DNA from: a virus
Lineage: Duplodnaviria > Heunggongvirae > Uroviricota > Caudoviricetes
IMG/VR virus record: IMGVR_UViG_2660238190_000006
Strand: one strand, 5' to 3'
Length of the DNA stretch: 11,635 bases
How positions within the stretch are numbered: position 1 is the first letter of the stretch; every line of letters begins with the position of its first letter. Made by a program: the position numbers and the translations under genes. Under the pieces are notes generated by a model that was given only the letters and a program-made list of their open reading frames with translations, had not been told where the DNA came from and searched no databases. Below are positions 1 to 11,635 of this stretch, piece after piece.

Positions 1-1218
1 ATGAACAAACTGAGCGATACCTTGCTAAGGAAACTTCATGGTAAGCCAGCGGAGAAAAACACGTTTTATAGTGATGGCGGAAACCTGAGCGTGAAATATT
101 TAACATCAGGGAAATTGACCTGGTATTTCACATACAGGGCCGGAACGGGAAGGGAGACACGACCCGAACGCATTAAGCTGGGAAGTTATCCTGATCTGAG
201 CCTGAAAGCAGCCAGGGAAAAAGCCGCACAGTGTCGCACATGGCTGGCTGAGGGGAAAAATCCACGTCATGAGATGAATTACACCGTACAGGAAGCGTTA
301 AAGCCCGTAACGGTTGGCGATGCGCTCACCTACTGGCTTGAGTATTACGTAAAGGAAAACCGCGTGGATTATATCGCCCTGAAAAGGCGACTTAATAATC
401 ACGTAATACAGCAGATTGGTGCTATGCCGCTGGATAAATGCGAGCTACGGCACTGGCTGGCCTGTTTTGACCAGGTGGCAAAGCGAACGCCTGTTACTGC
501 CGGATTCGTGCTACAGGCGTGCAAACAGGCGCTTAAGTTCTGCCGTAGGCGGCGCTATGCAATCAGCAACGTTCTGGACGATCTGAACGTGGCGGACGTT
601 GGGAAAAAACCGGATATAAGCGAACGTGTCTTAAGTAACAAAGAACTTGGCGAATTATTGCAGGCACTGGACAAAAAAATATTTTCCCCTTACTACGTCG
701 CGTTAATCCGCCTCCTGATTGTCTTCGGAGCCAGGACGGTAGAACTGAGGCTATCGGAGATCGGGGAGTGGGATTTTACGGAAATGCTATGGACCGTTCC
801 GAAGGAGCACAGCAAAACGAAGGTCGCAATATTCCGGCCCATACCGGAAGCGATCCTGCCGTTCGTCACGCAGCTGGTGGAGCAGAACAGGCACACGGGC
901 TTATTGCTGGGGGAAGTGAAACAGGAGGCCAGCGTATCGCAGTATGGAAGATTAGCGCACAGGAGGCTTAATCATCCTCACTGGTCACTGCATGACATCC
1001 GGCGCACCTTTACAACCATGCTGAACGATTTAGGCGTTGATCCGCATGTCGTGGAGCAGCTTACAGGTCATCAGATGCCAGGAATTCAGCGAGTTTATAA
1101 TCATTCCCGTTATCTGGATGCTAAACGCAATGCGCTGGATATGTGGATGGAGCGGTTAGGGATACTGGCGGGAACACATGAAAACGTAACCACGCTACCA
1201 GTAGCCAGAAGAAAATAA
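1..1218 (+). CDS. int: Tyrosine site-specific integrase, P4-like
   Basis: 405-aa ORF starting at base 1. N-terminus (MNKLSDTLLRKLHGKPAEKNTFYSDGGNLSVKY...WYFTYR) resembles the arm-binding domain of P4-type integrases. C-terminal catalytic signature HDIRRTF...GHQ...RVYNHSRY fits the R..H..R..Y tyrosine recombinase motif. Confidence 0.9.
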   Translation: MNKLSDTLLRKLHGKPAEKNTFYSDGGNLSVKYLTSGKLTWYFTYRAGTGRETRPERIKLGSYPDLSLKAAREKAAQCRTWLAEGKNPRHEMNYTVQEALKPVTVGDALTYWLEYYVKENRVDYIALKRRLNNHVIQQIGAMPLDKCELRHWLACFDQVAKRTPVTAGFVLQACKQALKFCRRRRYAISNVLDDLNVADVGKKPDISERVLSNKELGELLQALDKKIFSPYYVALIRLLIVFGARTVELRLSEIGEWDFTEMLWTVPKEHSKTKVAIFRPIPEAILPFVTQLVEQNRHTGLLLGEVKQEASVSQYGRLAHRRLNHPHWSLHDIRRTFTTMLNDLGVDPHVVEQLTGHQMPGIQRVYNHSRYLDAKRNALDMWMERLGILAGTHENVTTLPVARRK

Positions 1219-1260: not shown

Positions 1261-1320
1261 ACAGATACAACATGCAACAATGAGCAACAATGAGCAACAA
1301 TGCGGAACAACTACGAACAA
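1261..1320. repeat. Six tandem 10-bp-phased repeats ending in AACAA (two exact TGAGCAACAA units); candidate Int/AlpA (excisionase-like) binding array
   Basis: Seen: acagatacaa / catgcaacaa / tgagcaacaa / tgagcaacaa / tgcggaacaa / ctacgaacaa with strict 10-bp register, in the int-alpA intergenic region. Function is inferred. Confidence 0.6.
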
Positions 1321-1602
1321 GAGACGAAAAAGTGTACGGATTTATAAGTAGCTGATTTTTAATGTGTTACTGGTTTTTTATACACTAGCGAATCACTCTT
1401 TAAATAGCGAGAAAAAAGGCATGAAACAATATTTTATGCCTTTGTATTAACATGAATTTAAATGATTTTATCCTGATTATTCCTGTTTCTGTAAACCATA
1501 CGACCTCAACATTTGCCAACTCTGAATCATCCTGACACAATCAGACACATCCCAACGCAATAGAACACGAAATAACTCTTTAAGAAACGAAAGGGGGCAA
1601 TA

Positions 1603-1791
1603 GTGTTAAGCACTGATCGGTTTATACGTGAAAAAGAATGCGAAAAGCTAACAGGCCTTAGCCGCTCATGCCGCTACCGCCTGGAAAAGGCCGGACAATT
1701 CCCATCACGTCGTAAACTTGGCGGTCGTTCCGTTGGCTGGTCTTTATCCGAGGTTCTGGCCTGGAAGGATAGCTGCAAGGCAGTTCATTAA
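1603..1791 (+). CDS. alpA: AlpA-family (Xis/MerR-like HTH) transcriptional regulator / excisionase-like protein
   Basis: 62-aa ORF with GTG start preceded by AAAGGGGG. Sequence ...KECEKLTGLSRSCRYRLEKAGQFPSRRKLGGRSVGWSLSEVLAWK... matches the AlpA pattern (tG.sr...Y.l...G.FP...lg.rsvgW...ev..W). Typical position immediately downstream of int. Confidence 0.8.
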   Translation: MLSTDRFIREKECEKLTGLSRSCRYRLEKAGQFPSRRKLGGRSVGWSLSEVLAWKDSCKAVH

Positions 1792-3705: not shown

Positions 3706-4005
3706 ATGAAACTTAAATATTCTGGCTTAACTGCCAGTGGCAACACTCACCCTAAATTTACGCGCGGTGATATTTACCGCGACCAGTACGGCGGCACGGT
3801 AATGATTAAGGGCGTGGAAGAACGGCGCGTAACCTACCGCCGTGAAGGTTACGAATATGATTGCGTGATGCCTGTTTATCAGTTCCGGCGTGATTTTTCT
3901 CTGGTACAGACCGCGCCGCATAACGTGCCCACCAGCAACGCCAGGGCACGGGCAAACATCCAGAAGCTGAAAACCATGGTTAACGGATTCAGGGGCAAGA
4001 AATGA
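3706..4005 (+). CDS. Hypothetical protein (99 aa)
   Basis: RBS GGAGA about 10 nt upstream; stop overlaps the replicase start (ATGA). No family recognised. Confidence 0.6.
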   Translation: MKLKYSGLTASGNTHPKFTRGDIYRDQYGGTVMIKGVEERRVTYRREGYEYDCVMPVYQFRRDFSLVQTAPHNVPTSNARARANIQKLKTMVNGFRGKK

Positions 4006-5402
4006 AAAGCGCACCGAACTTAAAAAAACAGCCTTACGACAAGATGACCGAAGTCATCATTTTTGCGGGTAGTGATGCGTGGGCACATGCGAAACAGTGG
4101 CAGGAACAGGACGGGCGACTGGCTGGCGATAATGTGCCTCCCATTGTGCTGGCTGATGATCAACTGGATGAACTGGCAGACCTGAGAATCATCGACGAGG
4201 GGCGCTATTGTGTCCGGCTGTACAAGGCAGGCCACATCAGGCCATCAAATATTAATGCCATTGCGCACAAGCTGGCGGCGGCGGGCGTAACTGATGCGAA
4301 TTATTACCCCGAAGGGATGCACAGCCATATGCGGGAGAACTGGCGCGAATACCTGGAACGGGTGCGCGGGAAAGAGCCGGCGGAAGAAAAAAACCACCAG
4401 CGAAAAACCACGCTACCGATGAGCGTTGGATCTACCGGATACGACACGCAACTGGATTACGTGGTTAAGGGGATTATTCCGGCGGTATCGCTATGCAGCA
4501 TATACGGGGCTAGCGGGTCCTATAAATCATTCCTTGCCGGATCGTGGGCGTGCCATGTTGCCACTGGTCGCCAGTGGGGAGGCCGCAGGGTTGCACATGG
4601 TGCGGTTCTCTATGTGGTTGGTGAAGGCGGTATAGGTGTTCCGCGTCGTGTAAAAGCCTGGGAGGTTGTGCACGATGAGCAGGTGAAAAATCTGTATCTG
4701 GTAAACCGCCCCATCTTTCCGGCTGCCCCGCTTGATGTTGATGAAATGGTTATCGCTGCCCGTCAGGTGGAGCGGGAAACGGGTAAACCTGTACGCATGA
4801 TTATTCTGGATACGCTGGCGCGTTGCTTTGGTGGGAATGATGAAAATGATTCCCGTGATATGGGGGCGTTTATCCGTGGTTGTGACGAACTGAAACGACG
4901 CACAGGGGCCACGGTGCTGGTGGTTCACCATTCCGGCAAGGATGAGACGAAAGGCGCGCGCGGTTCCAGTGCATTTCGTGCTTCGCTGGATGCTGAATAC
5001 CGGATACGCAGGGAGGACGCAGGAAGCGAAGCGCTGGTTATCTCATGCACCAAAATGAAGGACGCGGAGGAACTCAAAGAAGCCGCATATGACTTACGCG
5101 TGGTGGAGCTTTTTACCGACGCTGACGGTGAATTAATCACGTCGCTGGTGGTGGTGGATGATCCGCGCCCTCCTGTTGAACTGGAGCGCATCGAGGAGGC
5201 AGGGAACAAGACGGAAAACCATACCGCGCTATGGGGGTGCATCCGTTCACGCACACAGAACGGCGACAAGTGCACGATCCAGATGTTACGTGATGACATG
5301 AAAAAGCTGGGGTATGAAATGAAAAACTTCCGGCGCTGGCTGTACAAGCTGGAAAAAGATGGGGTTATTCGTATCGATGGGGATGATGTAGCGCCGCTAT
5401 AA
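4002..5402 (+). CDS. Replication protein: RecA/DnaB-like P-loop ATPase (RepA/AAA_25-type helicase) with an N-terminal domain of unknown function
   Basis: 466-aa ORF. Walker A GASGSYKS (in IYGASGSYKSFLAG), Walker B-like hydrophobic-D stretch MIILDTLARCFGG, and HHSGKD (sensor-like) typical of RepA/DnaB-family replicative ATPases found in satellite pri-rep modules. Iteron cluster lies immediately downstream. Confidence 0.8.
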   Translation: MKSAPNLKKQPYDKMTEVIIFAGSDAWAHAKQWQEQDGRLAGDNVPPIVLADDQLDELADLRIIDEGRYCVRLYKAGHIRPSNINAIAHKLAAAGVTDANYYPEGMHSHMRENWREYLERVRGKEPAEEKNHQRKTTLPMSVGSTGYDTQLDYVVKGIIPAVSLCSIYGASGSYKSFLAGSWACHVATGRQWGGRRVAHGAVLYVVGEGGIGVPRRVKAWEVVHDEQVKNLYLVNRPIFPAAPLDVDEMVIAARQVERETGKPVRMIILDTLARCFGGNDENDSRDMGAFIRGCDELKRRTGATVLVVHHSGKDETKGARGSSAFRASLDAEYRIRREDAGSEALVISCTKMKDAEELKEAAYDLRVVELFTDADGELITSLVVVDDPRPPVELERIEEAGNKTENHTALWGCIRSRTQNGDKCTIQMLRDDMKKLGYEMKNFRRWLYKLEKDGVIRIDGDDVAPL

Positions 5403-5593
5403 AAGTGAGGAGCAAAAGCGAGGGGGATAGAAAGAGGGCCAAAATTAGCCCGCTCCCCCTCACTTTTCGACCTGTATACATCCTCAAAAGTGAGGGGTAA
5501 AAAAATACTTATGAAACACACACATAGAAAAACCGAAAATCCCAACTGCGACGAAGTGAGACGCTTGAAAAAGTGAGGCGAAAAAGTGAGAGG
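5401..5593. promoter_or_regulatory. Iteron cluster (AAAGTGAGG repeats, both orientations) with an AT-rich spacer; putative replication origin and/or operator
   Basis: Seen: AAAAGTGAGG at 5401-5410, inverted copy at 5455-5467, AAAAGTGAGGGG 5486-5497, GAAGTGAGAC 5553-5562, AAAAAGTGAGG 5568-5578, AAAAAGTGAGAGG 5581-5593, plus degenerate AAAGCGAGGGGGA 5415-5427. An AT-rich tract at 5497-5545 lies between copies. Position directly 3' of the replicase gene is typical for satellite/PICI origins (inference). Confidence 0.55.
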
Positions 5594-6576: not shown

Positions 6577-6588
6577 GGGGTGGGGACG

Positions 6589-6861
6589 ATGGTACATGAC
6601 CGCATAGCGGAAGAACTGGAGGCGAAAGGCTTTTACCGGAGAGCGTCGGCGCGATGGGGTGAAGTCATGCAACTGGTGGAGACAGACAAGGAACGGCATC
6701 ACATCACGATGCGACGGCTGGAATGTTCCAGGAAGGCACAGAGGCCACCGGAGCCGCCGGATAATTACGGAGACCTGAAAAAGGCGGTCGATCGCACTTA
6801 TGCCGAAATGGGTATGGATGGTGCTGGTGATGAAATATGGCGAAATTACCAGGACAGATAA
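6589..6861 (+). CDS. PerC-family-like transcriptional activator (tentative)
   Basis: About 90-aa ORF. AEELEAKGFYRRASARWGEVM resembles the PerC/Pch N-terminal signature (LE..G.WRRAA..W) as remembered. ATG 6589 with GAGGGG RBS is preferred over GTG 6580. Followed by a terminator. Confidence 0.5.
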   Translation: MVHDRIAEELEAKGFYRRASARWGEVMQLVETDKERHHITMRRLECSRKAQRPPEPPDNYGDLKKAVDRTYAEMGMDGAGDEIWRNYQDR

Positions 6862-6867
6862 TCACAC

Positions 6868-6890
6868 AGCCGGAGCAATCCGGCTTTTTG
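6868..6890 (+). terminator. Rho-independent terminator after the PerC-like gene
   Basis: Seen: AGCCGGA-GCAA-TCCGGCT stem-loop followed by TTTTT. Confidence 0.65.
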
Positions 6891-6918
6891 TCATGTTTTG
6901 TAAATTATTTGTTCGTGG

Positions 6919-6933
6919 TTGTTCCACGTTGTT
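6919..6933. repeat. 15-mer TTGTTCCACGTTGTT (copy 1) within three tandem TTGTTC-containing decamers
   Basis: Seen: exact 15-mer shared with 11370-11384. Local context tatTTGTTCgtggTTGTTCcacgTTGTTCgctg. Confidence 0.5.
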
Positions 6934-7111
6934 CGCTGACCGGATCGGCATATTTTACCCGAACTGAATCATGATTATTCTCGCCCGTGGTGCCAGGACG
7001 CTGGGGCCACTTTCCCGCCTGTTAATGTGCCCGCCAATATTCATTACCAGGCGGGAAAACGATCGGTGCGATTGCTGATTTCCTTATGAAAAACGGTTGA
7101 GTGTTTGCCGC

Positions 7112-7148
7112 GTCCTGGAGTTCCTTACTTAACTTCAGGACTTTTTTT
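7112..7148 (+). terminator. Strong intrinsic terminator/attenuator hairpin ending in T7, directly abutting the capsid start codon and sequestering its RBS
   Basis: Seen: 11-bp stem GTCCTGGAGTT (7112-7122) pairing with AACTTCAGGAC (7131-7141), one G-U pair, 8-nt loop, then TTTTTTT (7142-7148), then ATG at 7149. The AGGA RBS (7137-7140) is inside the 3' arm. Confidence 0.6.
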
Positions 7149-8306
7149 ATGCCGAGAATAATCGAATTACGCCAGCAGAAAACCGCCATTAAAAATCAGA
7201 TGCGCGACATGCTGGAGAACGCGGAAAAAGAAAACCGCAGCCTTAACGATGCTGAGGGCGCAAAATTTGACGAATTACGCGCTAAAGCTGAATCCCTCGA
7301 TAAAGACATCTCCCGCCTTGAGGCCGTTGCTGACGAAGAGCGCAGTAAACCAGGCAAAAACAGCCAGACCACTGACCCCGCCGAACTACGTCACTACATT
7401 CTGACAGGTGAAACCCGCGCATTGAGTACAGGCGTTCCCGCTGATGGTGGTTATACCGTTATCCCCGAACTGAACACCGAAATCATGCGAATGCTGACGG
7501 ATGAATCCACCATGCGCCGCATCTGTACCGTGAAGAAAATCAGCAGCAACGAGTTTAAGCAGCTTGTTTCCGCTGGCGGTGCGACCGTTAACCACGGTGA
7601 AGAGGGTAAGGCACGCGAACAGACCAGCACCCCGCAGATTAACGAGGTGAGCATTAAGCTGTATCCGGTCTATGCGTACCCGCGCACCACGCAGGAAATC
7701 GTGGATTTTTCCGATGTGGACATCCTTTCATGGCTGACGGGCGAGATTGGCGACACCTTCACGGAAACCGAAGAAAGCGATCTGGTTGTGGGCGACGGTG
7801 ACAAAAAAGCAAAAGGCTTTTTATCCGTACCCCGTGCAGAGAAGAACGACAAAGAGCGTGATTTTGGTACGTTGCAGGTAATTAAACCTTCCGAATCTCT
7901 GGCGTGGACATCTGCGGACCCGCTGATCGACCTGAAATTTGCATTACGTAAAAAATACCGCAAAAACGCGGTCTGGGTGGTTAACTCCACGACGGCGGCA
8001 AAACTCCAGAAGGTGAAGAACGCGAACGGTGATTACATCTGGCGTGACCGTTTACAGGCGGGTGATCCTGATACGTTGCTGGGCCTTCCGGTCGAATATC
8101 TGGAGTTTATGCCGGATAACGTTATTGCCCTGGGTGACTTCAAACGCGGTTACTACATTGTTGATCACGAAACAGGTGTTCGCACCAGACCGGACAACCT
8201 CACAGAGCCGGGCTTCATCAAAATTTTCGCGCAGAAATATTTAGGCGGTGGCGTGGTGGATTCGAACGCGATCAAGATTCTGGAACTGCCACAGGACGAC
8301 GATTAA
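7149..8306 (+). CDS. Major capsid protein, HK97 fold, with N-terminal coiled-coil scaffold (delta-like) domain
   Basis: N-terminal coiled coil RIIELRQQKTAIKNQMRDMLENAEKENRSLNDAEGAKFDELRAKAESLDKDISRLEAV matches the HK97-family MCP delta-domain pattern. GDGDKKAKGFLS fits the conserved G.G...p.Gil region. Start 7149 chosen over GTG 7101; start is uncertain. Confidence 0.85.
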   Translation: MPRIIELRQQKTAIKNQMRDMLENAEKENRSLNDAEGAKFDELRAKAESLDKDISRLEAVADEERSKPGKNSQTTDPAELRHYILTGETRALSTGVPADGGYTVIPELNTEIMRMLTDESTMRRICTVKKISSNEFKQLVSAGGATVNHGEEGKAREQTSTPQINEVSIKLYPVYAYPRTTQEIVDFSDVDILSWLTGEIGDTFTETEESDLVVGDGDKKAKGFLSVPRAEKNDKERDFGTLQVIKPSESLAWTSADPLIDLKFALRKKYRKNAVWVVNSTTAAKLQKVKNANGDYIWRDRLQAGDPDTLLGLPVEYLEFMPDNVIALGDFKRGYYIVDHETGVRTRPDNLTEPGFIKIFAQKYLGGGVVDSNAIKILELPQDDD

Positions 8307-8345: not shown

Positions 8346-8918
8346 ATGGGTGAAAAAATTATGAAGAGTATGGAAATCCGGTCATCGGAAATCACCACCA
8401 GCGGAGCCGGTACGCTGACGGGCTACATTGTTCGCTGGGATAAGCTTTCAGAACTGTTATGGGGTGAGTTTTACGAAAAATTCCAGCGGGGGGCGTTTAC
8501 TGAATGGCTTGCGGCGGGTAATGACGTTCGCGGCCTGTATGAGCATGACCACAGCATGTTACTGGGGCGCACCCGTTCCGGCACGCTGAAACTGGAAGAG
8601 GACGAAACAGGGTTACGCTTTGAACTGACCCCACCGGATACCAGTACAGGGCGCGACGTTATCGAACTGGTTAAACGAGGTGATATATCCGGCATGAGCT
8701 TTGGCTTTCGTTCCCGTAAGGATGTATGGGATACCACAACAGATCCATGCGTGCGCACCGTGCTGGTGGCGGAACTGTACGAAATTACCGTTACATCCGT
8801 ACCGGCTTACCCTGATTCCGACGTGGAGCTGGCCCGCCGTTCCCTGTATGAGCAGCACCCCGAAAAAATGCCGCGTGCGGATAATCGCCGCTGGTGGGCG
8901 GATTTAGCGGGGGTGTGA
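8346..8918 (+). CDS. Prohead maturation protease, HK97 family (S78/U35-like)
   Basis: Motifs GYIVRWDKLSELLWGEFYEKFQRGAF, LYEHDHSMLLGRT, GLRFELTPPDTSTGRDVIELVKRGDISGMSFGF and YEITVTSVPAYPDS match the HK97 prohead protease family pattern. Start may instead be ATG 8361 or 8370. Confidence 0.85.
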   Translation: MGEKIMKSMEIRSSEITTSGAGTLTGYIVRWDKLSELLWGEFYEKFQRGAFTEWLAAGNDVRGLYEHDHSMLLGRTRSGTLKLEEDETGLRFELTPPDTSTGRDVIELVKRGDISGMSFGFRSRKDVWDTTTDPCVRTVLVAELYEITVTSVPAYPDSDVELARRSLYEQHPEKMPRADNRRWWADLAGV

Positions 8919-10438
8919 TATGTGGCCTTTCCAGGGTGTGCCCGCACGTAAAAGGGCCGATGCGTGGCAGACCCATTGAGCTGGAGCCGTGGCAGCAGTT
9001 CGCCTTTGCGTGCATCCTCGGCTTTAAGGTTAAGGCCACCGGACGGCGCAAATACACGAGCGCCTTTATCGAAGTGCCGCGCAAAAATGCGAAATCCACG
9101 ACCGCCGCGATTCTGGCTAACTGGTTTCTGATTATGGAGAACGGTCAGCAGGATATCTACACCGCAGCGGTGAGCCGTGACCAGGCGCGGATCGTCTTTG
9201 ATGATGCGCGTCAGATGTGCCTTTTATCCCGACCGTTACGCAGGCGGGTGAATATTCAGGCGCATAAGGTGATGCACCCGAAAAGCAACAGCCTGTTAAA
9301 GCCGCTGGCAGCAAAAGCGGCAACCATCGAGGGAACAAACCCCAGCCTTTCCATCGTGGACGAATACCACTTGCACCCCGATAACGGCGTTTATTCCGCG
9401 CTTGAGCTGGGGATGGGCGCACGCCCCGAAGGGCTGTTATTTGCTATTACCACATCAGGCAGTAACGTCGTTTCAGCCTGTAAGCAGCACTATGATTATT
9501 GCTGCCAGATCCTGGACGGCGAAGAGGTCAACGATTCAATTTTTGTACTGATTTACGAACTGGACGACGAAAACGAGGTTGATGATCCGGCGATGTGGAT
9601 AAAGGCGAACCCTAATATTGATGTTTCCGTGGATCGTGAAAAACTGGCCTCAACCATCCAGAAAGCGCGGGGTATTCCGTCGCAGTGGGTGGAGATGATG
9701 ACAAAGCGATTTAATATCTGGTGCCAGGGGGCTACCCCGTGGATGGGTAACGGCGCATGGGCTGAGTGTGCCGGAACGTTCACGGAGGAAGATTTACACG
9801 GCCAGGAGTGTTACGCGGGGCTGGACTTATCATCAACCAGCGATATTTCCAGCGTGTGCTATGCCTTTCCGGTCGGTAAAACCATTATGCTGGTTTCCCG
9901 TCACTATCTGCCGGAATTTCAGCTACAGAACCCCGCCAATAAAAACCGCGCCATCTATCGTCAGTGGGCTAAAGCAGGCTGGATACGCACAACGCCTGGC
10001 GACTGCATTGATTACGACCGGATCAGAGATGACATCATGCAGGACGCGGAGAAATTTAATATCAGGCTGGTGGGCTTTGATACGTGGAACGCCACGCATC
10101 TCAGAACGCAATTACAGGGGGCAGGTTTTGAGGTGGAGCCGTTCCCGCAAACCTACCTCAGATTCAGTCCGGCGGCGAAATCGTTCGAAGTTTTTGTTAA
10201 CCGCAGGGTGATTGTGCATCGTGGCGATCCGGTGTTGTCCTGGTCGATGAGTAACGTCGTGATGCAGAGTGACGCGAACGCCAATATCAAGCCGAACAAG
10301 AAAAAATCACCGAACAAGATAGACCCGAGCGTGGCGGCGCTGATGGCGTTTGGTACATTCCAGGCAGAGCATGAGGATTTTGCTTTTGATATAAGCGACA
10401 GCCACCGCCAGAAACTGGAAGAATTTAGCGGGGTGTAA
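8894..10438 (+). CDS. Terminase large subunit (Terminase_1 / COG4626-type), with a short N-terminus
   Basis: Motifs recognised: LEPWQQF; P-loop EVPRKNAKSTTAA; AAVSRDQARIVF; Walker B SIVDEYHLH; ITTSG; WIKANPNIDVSV; GLDLSSTSD; C-terminal KPNKKKSPNKIDPSVAALMAF. Start ambiguous (GTG 8894 overlapping the protease end, GTG 8936, or ATG 8960). Confidence 0.85.
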   Translation: MGGFSGGVICGLSRVCPHVKGPMRGRPIELEPWQQFAFACILGFKVKATGRRKYTSAFIEVPRKNAKSTTAAILANWFLIMENGQQDIYTAAVSRDQARIVFDDARQMCLLSRPLRRRVNIQAHKVMHPKSNSLLKPLAAKAATIEGTNPSLSIVDEYHLHPDNGVYSALELGMGARPEGLLFAITTSGSNVVSACKQHYDYCCQILDGEEVNDSIFVLIYELDDENEVDDPAMWIKANPNIDVSVDREKLASTIQKARGIPSQWVEMMTKRFNIWCQGATPWMGNGAWAECAGTFTEEDLHGQECYAGLDLSSTSDISSVCYAFPVGKTIMLVSRHYLPEFQLQNPANKNRAIYRQWAKAGWIRTTPGDCIDYDRIRDDIMQDAEKFNIRLVGFDTWNATHLRTQLQGAGFEVEPFPQTYLRFSPAAKSFEVFVNRRVIVHRGDPVLSWSMSNVVMQSDANANIKPNKKKSPNKIDPSVAALMAFGTFQAEHEDFAFDISDSHRQKLEEFSGV

Positions 10439-11170: not shown

Positions 11171-11369
11171 GATGCTTTTACCCCATTGGGGGAAAGGTAT
11201 TACGATAATCATAACACCTACCGAACAGGTAAAGCCCACCAGCCTGATTAACGTTTAACCGGAAAAAAATTCCGGTAGGTGGGGATCCCCATATCGACAT
11301 TAACGCCCCTCATGAATTGGTGCGCTTCCCCCTGGAAAGATGATCCGCCTGTATATTTCTTGTGTCTAT

Positions 11370-11384
11370 TTGTTCCACGTTGTT
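11370..11384. repeat. 15-mer TTGTTCCACGTTGTT (copy 2)
   Basis: Seen: exact match to 6919-6933; shared TATTTGTTC prefix as well. Confidence 0.5.
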
Positions 11385-11470
11385 TCATACAGTGCACCGA
11401 ACGGTGTAGTCACTGGTGTAGTCATTTTGCGATTTTTGGCACTTTTTGCGGTGAAAATTATTTAATTAAA

Positions 11471-11635
11471 TCAACGTGTTATGTGAAATAAGTTATATAT
11501 AACAGCAATAAATAATGCGAGAATAAACGGCACGATGATCTCGGCGGCAAAACGGATACCGCAGAGAATAATGACCAGCATTCCCAACATAATGACGATT
11601 TTTAGGCCATTGAGCGTGATGATCGGCTTTGCCAT
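11471..11635 (-). pseudogene. tqsA: 5' fragment (54 codons) of an AI-2E-family transporter gene (TqsA/YdgG-like), apparently truncated at the island junction
   Basis: Minus-strand ORF starting at the last base of the window: [54 protein letters not shown]. The N-terminal 45 or so residues match my recollection of E. coli TqsA; the ORF then diverges and stops. It is shorter than 60 aa, so absent from the supplied track. Confidence 0.45.

Follow-up and report, generated by a model that had tools for sequence, protein, structure and literature searches.

Phased TTGTTC decamer arrays as candidate operators of AlpA in a capsid-forming phage satellite of Escherichia coli

Why should an exact 15-mer, TTGTTCCACGTTGTT, stand both ahead of the capsid gene and near the far end of a phage satellite? 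The question was raised by a stretch of 11,635 nucleotides (IMG/VR record IMGVR_UViG_2660238190_000006; Caudoviricetes), which was analysed as a whole and is called the window here; positions refer to it unless a related locus is named. The window is a capsid-forming phage-inducible chromosomal island (cf-PICI) of Escherichia coli, inserted in tqsA, and a degraded member of the family of which EcCIEDL933 is the prototype. It matched islands in the E. coli chromosome whose annotation lists an integrase, an AlpA-type helix-turn-helix (HTH) protein, a RepA helicase, a single-stranded DNA-binding protein (SSB), PerC and HK97-type head and terminase proteins; three of these annotations (P4-type integrase, AlpA and PerC) were supported by Pfam on the window. 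The 15-mer was found to be two adjacent units of a 10-bp-periodic TTGTTC(C/G) decamer array. Judged from their sequence and setting, such arrays are probably cooperative operators of AlpA, which would be the excision factor at the attachment (att) site and would also regulate the alpA and capsid promoters.

The sequence-only reading from which the question arose had noted the exact 15-mer at 6919–6933 and 11370–11384, a shared prefix and three tandem TTGTTC decamers just behind the terminator of the PerC-like gene, and all of these were recovered: both 15-mers are on the plus strand, TATTTGTTC is at 6906–6914 and 11367–11375, and the decamers (6909–6938) directly follow the terminator-like hairpin behind the PerC stop codon. 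The largest array (1261–1320, minus strand) had been left out, and with it a further copy of the 15-mer with two mismatches (1296–1310, minus strand); the two copies noted are only a fragment of a larger pattern. That the repeat was unlikely by chance held for the periodic structure much more than for the 15-mer. In 300 dinucleotide-preserving shuffles of the window, an exact direct 15-mer repeat of any kind was counted in 25 (8 %), which makes the 15-mer alone mildly unlikely. The periodicity, by contrast, is far beyond chance: chains of at least three TTGT units at exact 10-bp spacing occur three times in the window against a mean of 0.007 in the shuffles, and TTGTTN5TTGTT, with one mismatch allowed, matches 10 times against 1.29 expected. 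The three arrays, A (six units), B (three units and two degenerate ones) and C (three units and one degenerate one), lie between int and alpA, upstream of the capsid gene and in the attR arm, respectively.

The arrays were compared with those of relatives inserted at tqsA, roxA/phoQ, yifB, abgR/smrA and cspD/clpS, including EcCICFT073, and of 58 IMG/VR loci retrieved with the capsid protein; the relatives at the last four sites have integrases 75–100 % and AlpA proteins 59–100 % identical to those of the window. Four array positions are conserved across islands inserted at these sites. With an array taken to be three or more TTGT in a chain at 9–11-bp spacing, 18 of 21 loci have one upstream of int, 28 of 36 have one on the minus strand downstream of int, and 48 of the 56 loci with a capsid homolog and enough sequence ahead of it have one there; many of the loci are close relatives, and the counts overstate independence. 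Nearly all arrays beyond these three positions were the attR array, and an equivalent of array C stands at the right end of most related islands. Exact TTGTTCCACGTTGTT was found 62 times in the 73 loci L001–L073 (two of which, L008 and L009, are distant AlpA relatives only): 35 times upstream of the capsid gene, 25 times in an att arm and followed by the doubled motif GGTGTAGT, twice on the minus strand and nowhere else. Two arrays were counted in 194 kb of flanking E. coli chromosome against 32 in 143 kb of island DNA. The motif is thus conserved in homologous elements and, being rare in the flanking chromosome, does not belong to a generic host repeat family, a possibility that the sequence-only reading had allowed for. 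A scan of IMG/VR for TTGTTC-N4-TTGTTC-N4-TTGTTC returned 118 loci, in 95 of which none of the Int, AlpA, PerC and capsid queries has a homolog; most of these 95 are probably chance matches. The same scan yielded locus L091, to which we return below.

Array C (11360–11399, plus strand) consists of a three-unit core, TTGTGTCTAT TTGTTCCACG TTGTTTCATA (11360–11389), which includes the right-hand copy of the 15-mer, and a degenerate fourth unit, CAGTGCACCG. This copy had been read as a possible promoter element for a function at the island end, and that was not borne out: it lies inside the attR arm, in an array 114–143 bp from the att core, whose identity block ATAACAGCA (11499–11507) lies at the tqsA junction. 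Between array and core lies a doubled 12-bp motif, GGTGTAGTCAcTGGTGTAGTCA (11403–11426, plus strand), the putative arm-type sites of the integrase. The left att arm is immediately outside the window and was read from relatives. In L001 the core block ATAACAGCA is found at both ends (2305 and 17865) and the doubled motif at 2442–2463 and 17769–17790; its attL arm, followed from the tqsA junction to the int start, contains TTGTTCCAGC TTGTTTCACG TTGTAGCCCT TTGTGCAACG, three further nucleotides and then GGTGTAGTCAcTGGTGTAGTCA. Full-length relatives in general carry this fourth array, of three to four units, in the attL arm just left of the window. In the reconstructed attP, measured from the core centre, the decamer arrays lie at −143 to −114 (attR) and +90 to +129 (attL), and the doubled motif at about −100 to −77 and at +133 to +154. 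Each att-arm array is followed by a GGTGTAGTCA pair, the arrays of the two arms are co-oriented, and the doubled GGTGTAGTCA motif was found at att only, in both arms.

Because of this occurrence at att only, and of a geometry like that of the P4 arm repeats and of the motif in helper-embedded PICIs (HE-PICIs), the doubled motif GGTGTAGTCAcTGGTGTAGTCA is likely the arm site of the integrase (Int). With Int assigned to it, the TTGTTC arrays are left for the excision factor, or recombination directionality factor (RDF). The place of the right-hand 15-mer in the attR arm and the near-duplicate module in attL point to an excision factor that would also regulate promoters, rather than to two co-regulated promoters. 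Now that decamer arrays and the doubled 12-bp motif can be told apart as two classes within the att arms, the excision complex formed by P4-type integrases should be easier to model.

It may be asked whether the decamers are themselves arm-type sites of the P4-like integrase, arrays A and B being extra Int sites that regulate alpA and the capsid operon, or relics. The integrase (int, 1–1218, plus strand; its start as annotated in relatives is 12 nt left of the window) has an arm-binding domain (N-terminal Arm-DNA-bind_3, Pfam), the arrays are co-oriented in both att arms as arm sites are, tandem triplets at about 10 bp resemble P'1–P'3 of phage lambda, and within the clade the arrays always accompany this integrase family. 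They are, however, not confined to att, the best of them lying 1.3 kb and 4.6 kb from the nearest att core; P4 has doubled 12-bp arm repeats at the place taken here by the two GGTGTAGTCA copies, and the decamers are not of that form; and no case in which an integrase has arm sites at promoters far from att is known to us.

A partial natural experiment is provided by two helper-embedded cf-PICIs, L014 and L091, whose integrase is 41 % identical to that of the window and whose att sites have the arm motif TGTATTGC and no TTGTT array. Both carry two AlpA-like genes, of which one overlaps int and the other encodes a protein 60 % identical to the AlpA of the window, with a similar recognition region. 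Array B is perfect in L091 and degenerate in L014. The absence of att-arm arrays from HE-PICIs of the other integrase clade fits Int and a clade-specific RDF alike, and array B persists there; the perfect array of L091, next to a divergent integrase with a different doubled motif, argues against Int as the binder of array B. Overall, Int sites are an unlikely explanation of the arrays. The helper-embedded elements fit a split of labour with a separate Xis for att and AlpA for promoters, and recent module exchange could be another explanation of array B in L091. A separate set of repeats was seen between terL and the attR arm of L014 (E. coli 042; 18100–18265 of that locus), where GCGGGTTA(T/C) repeats at about 21-bp spacing are followed by inverted TAACCCGC repeats.

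Array B contains the left-hand copy of the 15-mer in its three-unit core, TTGTTCGTGG TTGTTCCACG TTGTTCGCTG (6909–6938, plus strand), which is preceded by two degenerate units, TTGTCATGTT TTGTAAATTAT (6888–6908, plus strand). Upstream lies the PerC gene (6580–6861, identified with Pfam; stop codon at 6861), followed by a terminator-like hairpin and T run (6868–6885, plus strand) that separates the capsid operon from upstream transcription; the major capsid protein gene (7149–8306, plus strand) is the first of the operon downstream of the array. The last array unit supplies the −35 hexamer TTGTTC of a putative weak sigma-70 promoter (6929–6956, plus strand; 16-nt spacer, −10 TATTTT). A promoter scanner reported no consensus site at the capsid leader; the TTGTTC–16 nt–TATTTT arrangement is found also in L062, whose capsid protein is 69 % identical. 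The array always occupies the same place between terminator and capsid gene, and it is restricted to capsid-forming islands, islands of the EcCICFT073 type carrying other sequence before their late genes.

The two 15-mer copies had been proposed to bind a common regulator, with island proteins (AlpA and a PerC-like protein among them) and helper late activators as candidates. That both are sites of one DNA-binding regulator is supported, and AlpA was among the names given. PerC is excluded, L003 and L015 having retained array B without it; the array is present, too, in cf-PICIs with ProQ/FinO in place of PerC. A late activator of the helper phage is less likely.

More broadly, the arrays could be targets of a factor from outside the island, of helper-phage or host origin, either the inducer of alpA or a helper Xis/Cox-type protein comparable to Cox of P2 at the cox boxes of the P4 late promoter. 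Helper phages do activate alpA transcription by way of some factor; the late-promoter region of P4 has three tandem decamers of the CTTTAAGTGG type; and the element TTTGTAAATTAT persists in the cf-PICI leaders of distant elements with diverged AlpA. Such a factor is rather improbable, nevertheless, as the arrays in both of the island's own att arms, beside Int sites, point to its own excision factor, and as none occurs in phage lambda, which is known to act as a helper for these PICIs. The many different helpers by which these islands are mobilised are also a poor fit with a single phage-specific specificity. Nor do the units resemble the lambda CII site, of which the consensus is TTGC-N6-TTGC tetrads flanking a −35 region: every array unit in the window reads TTGT and none TTGC, in arrays that were detected by means of their TTGT core.

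Array B might, again, be a non-functional relic of an att arm left by capture of the capsid module, the 15-mer being shared by descent. A 35-nt stretch around it is 77 % identical to the attR arm (family D1, alignment A1), and PICI modules recombine freely; a relic is nonetheless quite improbable, for the array lacks the doubled motif, keeps its fixed position between terminator and capsid gene, and is intact beside capsid genes of 63 %, 70–75 % and 98–100 % identity while the adjoining leader has been replaced. The leader cannot be aligned between types, and BLAST matched array B and the capsid gene and not the leader in between.

The capsid leaders showed several further features. When the window was compared with the leaders of L056–L064, its positions 6894–6912 read TTTTGTAAATTATTTGT, and TTTGTAAATTAT, with one to three substitutions in L057, L063 and L064, was the best-conserved leader element of cf-PICIs, distant types included. 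The units that follow it in distant types are TTTACCC-like (L057, L058 and L063) or degenerate (L056, L059 and L061). As an integration host factor (IHF) site, TTTTGTAAATTATTTGT gave only a poor match to consensus. A CGTGG/CCACG hairpin in array B was considered and rejected, since CCAGG in L013 and L015 breaks the pairing, and likeness to a DnaA box (TTCCAC against ATCCAC) was confined to some units. The leader itself (6939–7148) is structured, with a 17-nt inverted repeat (7011–7027/7042–7058) and a second terminator-like hairpin (7112–7141) whose T run ends at the capsid ATG. Both structures are conserved in L062, neither the leader nor the whole window matched an Rfam family, and the leader could be an attenuation or antitermination element.

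Array A (1261–1320, minus strand) comprises the six units TTGTTCGTAG TTGTTCCGCA TTGTTGCTCA TTGTTGCTCA TTGTTGCATG TTGTATCTGT, and lies 43 bp past the int stop codon and about 285 bp upstream of alpA. In an alignment of int–alpA regions (A2) its AACAA cores are fixed and spacers and flanks vary. Nearer to the gene, putative weak units of the TTGTGTC type (1533–1575, minus strand) overlap the predicted alpA promoter (1513–1541, TTGCCA-17-CACAAT), at a position conserved in group-1 islands. In L025, where Int is 67 % and AlpA 64 % identical to the proteins of the window, a three-unit TTGTTC array (2551–2580 of that locus) was observed just downstream of alpA, about 50 bp ahead of the next gene, in front of the operon that follows; the window has no array at that position.

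AlpA is proposed as the array binder. The gene (alpA, 1603–1791, plus strand) encodes a 62-aa winged-HTH protein (Pfam PF05930, E = 5e-18) that matches an AlpA family protein in PDB (8c3t, E = 2.6e-6) and is 47 % identical to Vis of P4; apart from AlpA, no Xis-like genes are annotated in these islands. RDFs bind tandem direct repeats one helical turn apart in a head-to-tail manner, and about three adjacent sites are needed, as shown for Apl (PMC7498355). Apl of phage 186, Cox of P2 and Vis of P4 bind similar arrays at promoters far from att as well (PMC7498355), and Vis binds the attP of P4 (PMC2603039). The islands show the corresponding features: direct repeats one turn apart, at least three adjacent units, an att arm beside putative Int sites, a cognate gene for a small winged-HTH protein, and a second array of the same motif remote from att. 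Homologs of AlpA are excisionases in CP4So and PICMI. Neither EcCICFT073 nor the capsid-forming EcCIEDL933 can be induced without AlpA; the protein activates its own promoter, and its overexpression sets off excision and replication of EcCICFT073. From this combination we infer that AlpA is the binder and that it activates the capsid promoter; how the arrays are built and phased, where they lie, how far they are conserved and that they do not depend on other modules are direct observations.

A switch of the following kind can be envisaged. The helper phage would turn on alpA, and the AlpA made would assemble head-to-tail along the arrays. In both att arms the bound protein would bend the DNA and, with Int seated at the adjoining GGTGTAGTCA sites, direct excision; near alpA it would regulate its own synthesis; and at the capsid leader, where the PerC terminator otherwise isolates the capsid promoter from upstream transcription, it would act on the weak promoter whose −35 overlaps the last array unit and so turn on the packaging operon. 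Tentatively, and with somewhat less than even confidence, AlpA may then be regarded as a bifunctional excision factor and activator, the phased TTGTTC motif as what wires att arms, alpA and capsid promoter into one helper-triggered switch, and array B with the capsid genes as a portable AlpA-responsive cassette. If so, the cassette would work in PICIs with unrelated integrases, a first AlpA operator would be defined, and AlpA regulons would become predictable across Gram-negative satellites, of which AlpA is the master switch. The literature searched held no account of what turns on the capsid operon in capsid-forming islands; an operator phased at 10 bp and mapped at four positions makes both the target of AlpA and the switching of the capsid genes open to simple experiments.

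Several observations weigh against AlpA as the regulator acting through these arrays. Array A is inverted and lies 130–250 bp from predicted alpA promoters, and group-2 islands, with AlpA proteins 64–66 % identical, retain the att and capsid arrays and lack array A. Array B is degenerate in L014 and could be an orphan site there, and PICIs that form no capsids, such as EcCICFT073, have no array ahead of their late genes. The AlpA of EcCICFT073 left expression of Pint-lacZ unchanged, with the array of that island 55–90 bp upstream of int. No paper defining an AlpA operator was found in the literature searched, which also gave nothing usable on PDB entry 8c3t. Finally, int and alpA were never found apart in roughly 1000 E. 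coli and about 70 IMG/VR copies, so that within the clade covariation cannot tell the two proteins apart; when E. coli genomes were searched by megablast and blastn, and IMG/VR was scanned with AlpA, only the co-linear int–alpA module came up and no element with this alpA beside an unrelated integrase, or the reverse. A scan of genome contigs with AlpA gave three loci, two of them too distant for use, and CP4-57, which carries the AlpA archetype of K-12, has no phased decamer array near intA or alpA and lends no independent support.

Replication was considered as another role, with the arrays as iterons, distant ori-like and crr-like sites of the island initiator as in P4. Two distant sites of this kind, ori and crr, are annotated in the P4 record, the P4 iteron is TGTTCACC, and the unit TTGTTCCAC superficially resembles it. 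There is no covariation, though, the arrays being the same with three unrelated initiators (RepA-type helicase, primase family and DUF927) and not standing beside the rep gene; iterons were rejected for this lack of covariation with the initiator and are highly improbable. Where PICI origins are expected, the window has repeats of another kind. Three AAAAGTGAGG-containing repeats (5401–5417, 5486–5502 and 5569–5585, at 85- and 83-bp spacing) lie directly downstream of the RepA helicase gene; PICI origins have been reported downstream of pri/rep, and the repeats are a candidate replication origin.

As for the rest of the window, the cf-PICI genes int, alpA, repA, capsid, protease and a truncated terL are present, and the full set is not, portal, connectors, HNH and terS having been deleted. 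Compared with the complete cf-PICI L012, 3.04 kb are missing, with the portal, head-closure, head–tail connector, HNH and terS genes and about the first 49 codons of terL; the junction (8925–8931, 7-bp overlap) falls inside an open reading frame (8894–10438). The element is probably unable to make or fill capsids of its own.

The window is also rich in Chi sites (GCTGGTGG), with 15 in 11.6 kb against 0.35 expected from shuffles (positions 873, 2044, 3113, 3929, 4394, 4916, 5144, 5933, 6195, 6529, 8395, 8762, 8890, 10066 and 11236), and several of its longest exact repeats contain Chi (ATCAGGCTGGTGGGC, three copies). Eleven related islands have 0.76–1.30 Chi per kb against 0.06–0.6 per kb in their own flanking chromosome. 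No paper on Chi enrichment in these islands was found in a literature search; the enrichment might protect linear or replicating island DNA from RecBCD.

Among known systems, the arrays resemble those of Apl in phage 186 and Cox in P2, in that direct repeats one turn apart, in at least three units, stand in an att arm and in a remote promoter region. They differ in that the binder proposed here is of the AlpA/Vis family (PF05930), that arrays are present in both att arms and that one of them precedes a capsid operon; moreover, AlpA is known to activate its own promoter, while repression is the main effect of Apl and Cox. A P2/186-like prophage that lies beside a cf-PICI in L061 has the textbook layout of a dual-function excisionase with a different motif: its TTTGCCA decamer arrays comprise four units at the att arm by a tRNA gene and six inverted units directly upstream of an apl/cox-like open reading frame (14395–14429 and 16084–16139 of that locus). 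Phage lambda likewise has a phased RDF array in an att arm, X1–X1.5–X2, which is bound by an Xis filament and adjoins the Int arm site P2; unlike the islands, it has Xis sites in one arm only and no promoter-regulating arrays elsewhere.

For the att arms, P4 offers a parallel. Its integrase is of the same type, for which P4 serves as the reference, Vis is annotated in the P4 record as 'excisionase and transcriptional regulator', and 'attP arm sequence repeats' are annotated in GenBank as doubled 12-bp pairs on both sides of the core at similar distances, those on the int side being TTGGGGGCATAA TTGGGGGCATCT. The integrase is only 24 % identical, however, the arm motif is TTGGGGGCATAA in place of GGTGTAGTCA, and P4 has no capsid operon. 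In P4 attP (L263, about 3966–4010, minus strand) a (G/T/A)TCC run at 10-bp spacing (cGTCCtgcgtcTTCCgaggttGTCCgttgaaATCC) directly adjoins the doubled arm repeat on the int side; by its sequence this run is comparable to the TTGTT array next to GGTGTAGTCA and may be where Vis binds, and the literature searched gave nothing usable on the sequence of a Vis box. For array B the closest functional analogue is the P4 late-promoter region, where the three tandem decamers (9176–9205) are Cox sites of P2 at which Cox binding activates the late promoter. There the binder is the excisionase of the helper; here the motif is found in the island's own att arms too, which points to the island's own protein.

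The doubled motif has its counterpart in the HE-PICIs. In these, two co-oriented copies of tgTGTATTGCantgTGTATTGCa lie in attP, about 81 bp upstream and 132 bp downstream of its centre, and the TGTATTGC motif, which was seen in L014 and L091, has been suggested to bind four integrase arm domains (PMC10111431). The GGTGTAGTCA pair has the same geometry, a likeness that concerns the doubled motif and not the TTGTTC arrays. The doubled motif was not found in other PICIs in that work and decamer arrays were not described there (PMC10111431); the presence of GGTGTAGTCAcTGGTGTAGTCA in both att arms extends this type of motif to a second integrase clade. The system described here is thus a new, so far undescribed member of the known class of dual-function excisionase operators, and extends the principle of Apl, Cox and Vis rather than introducing a new one.

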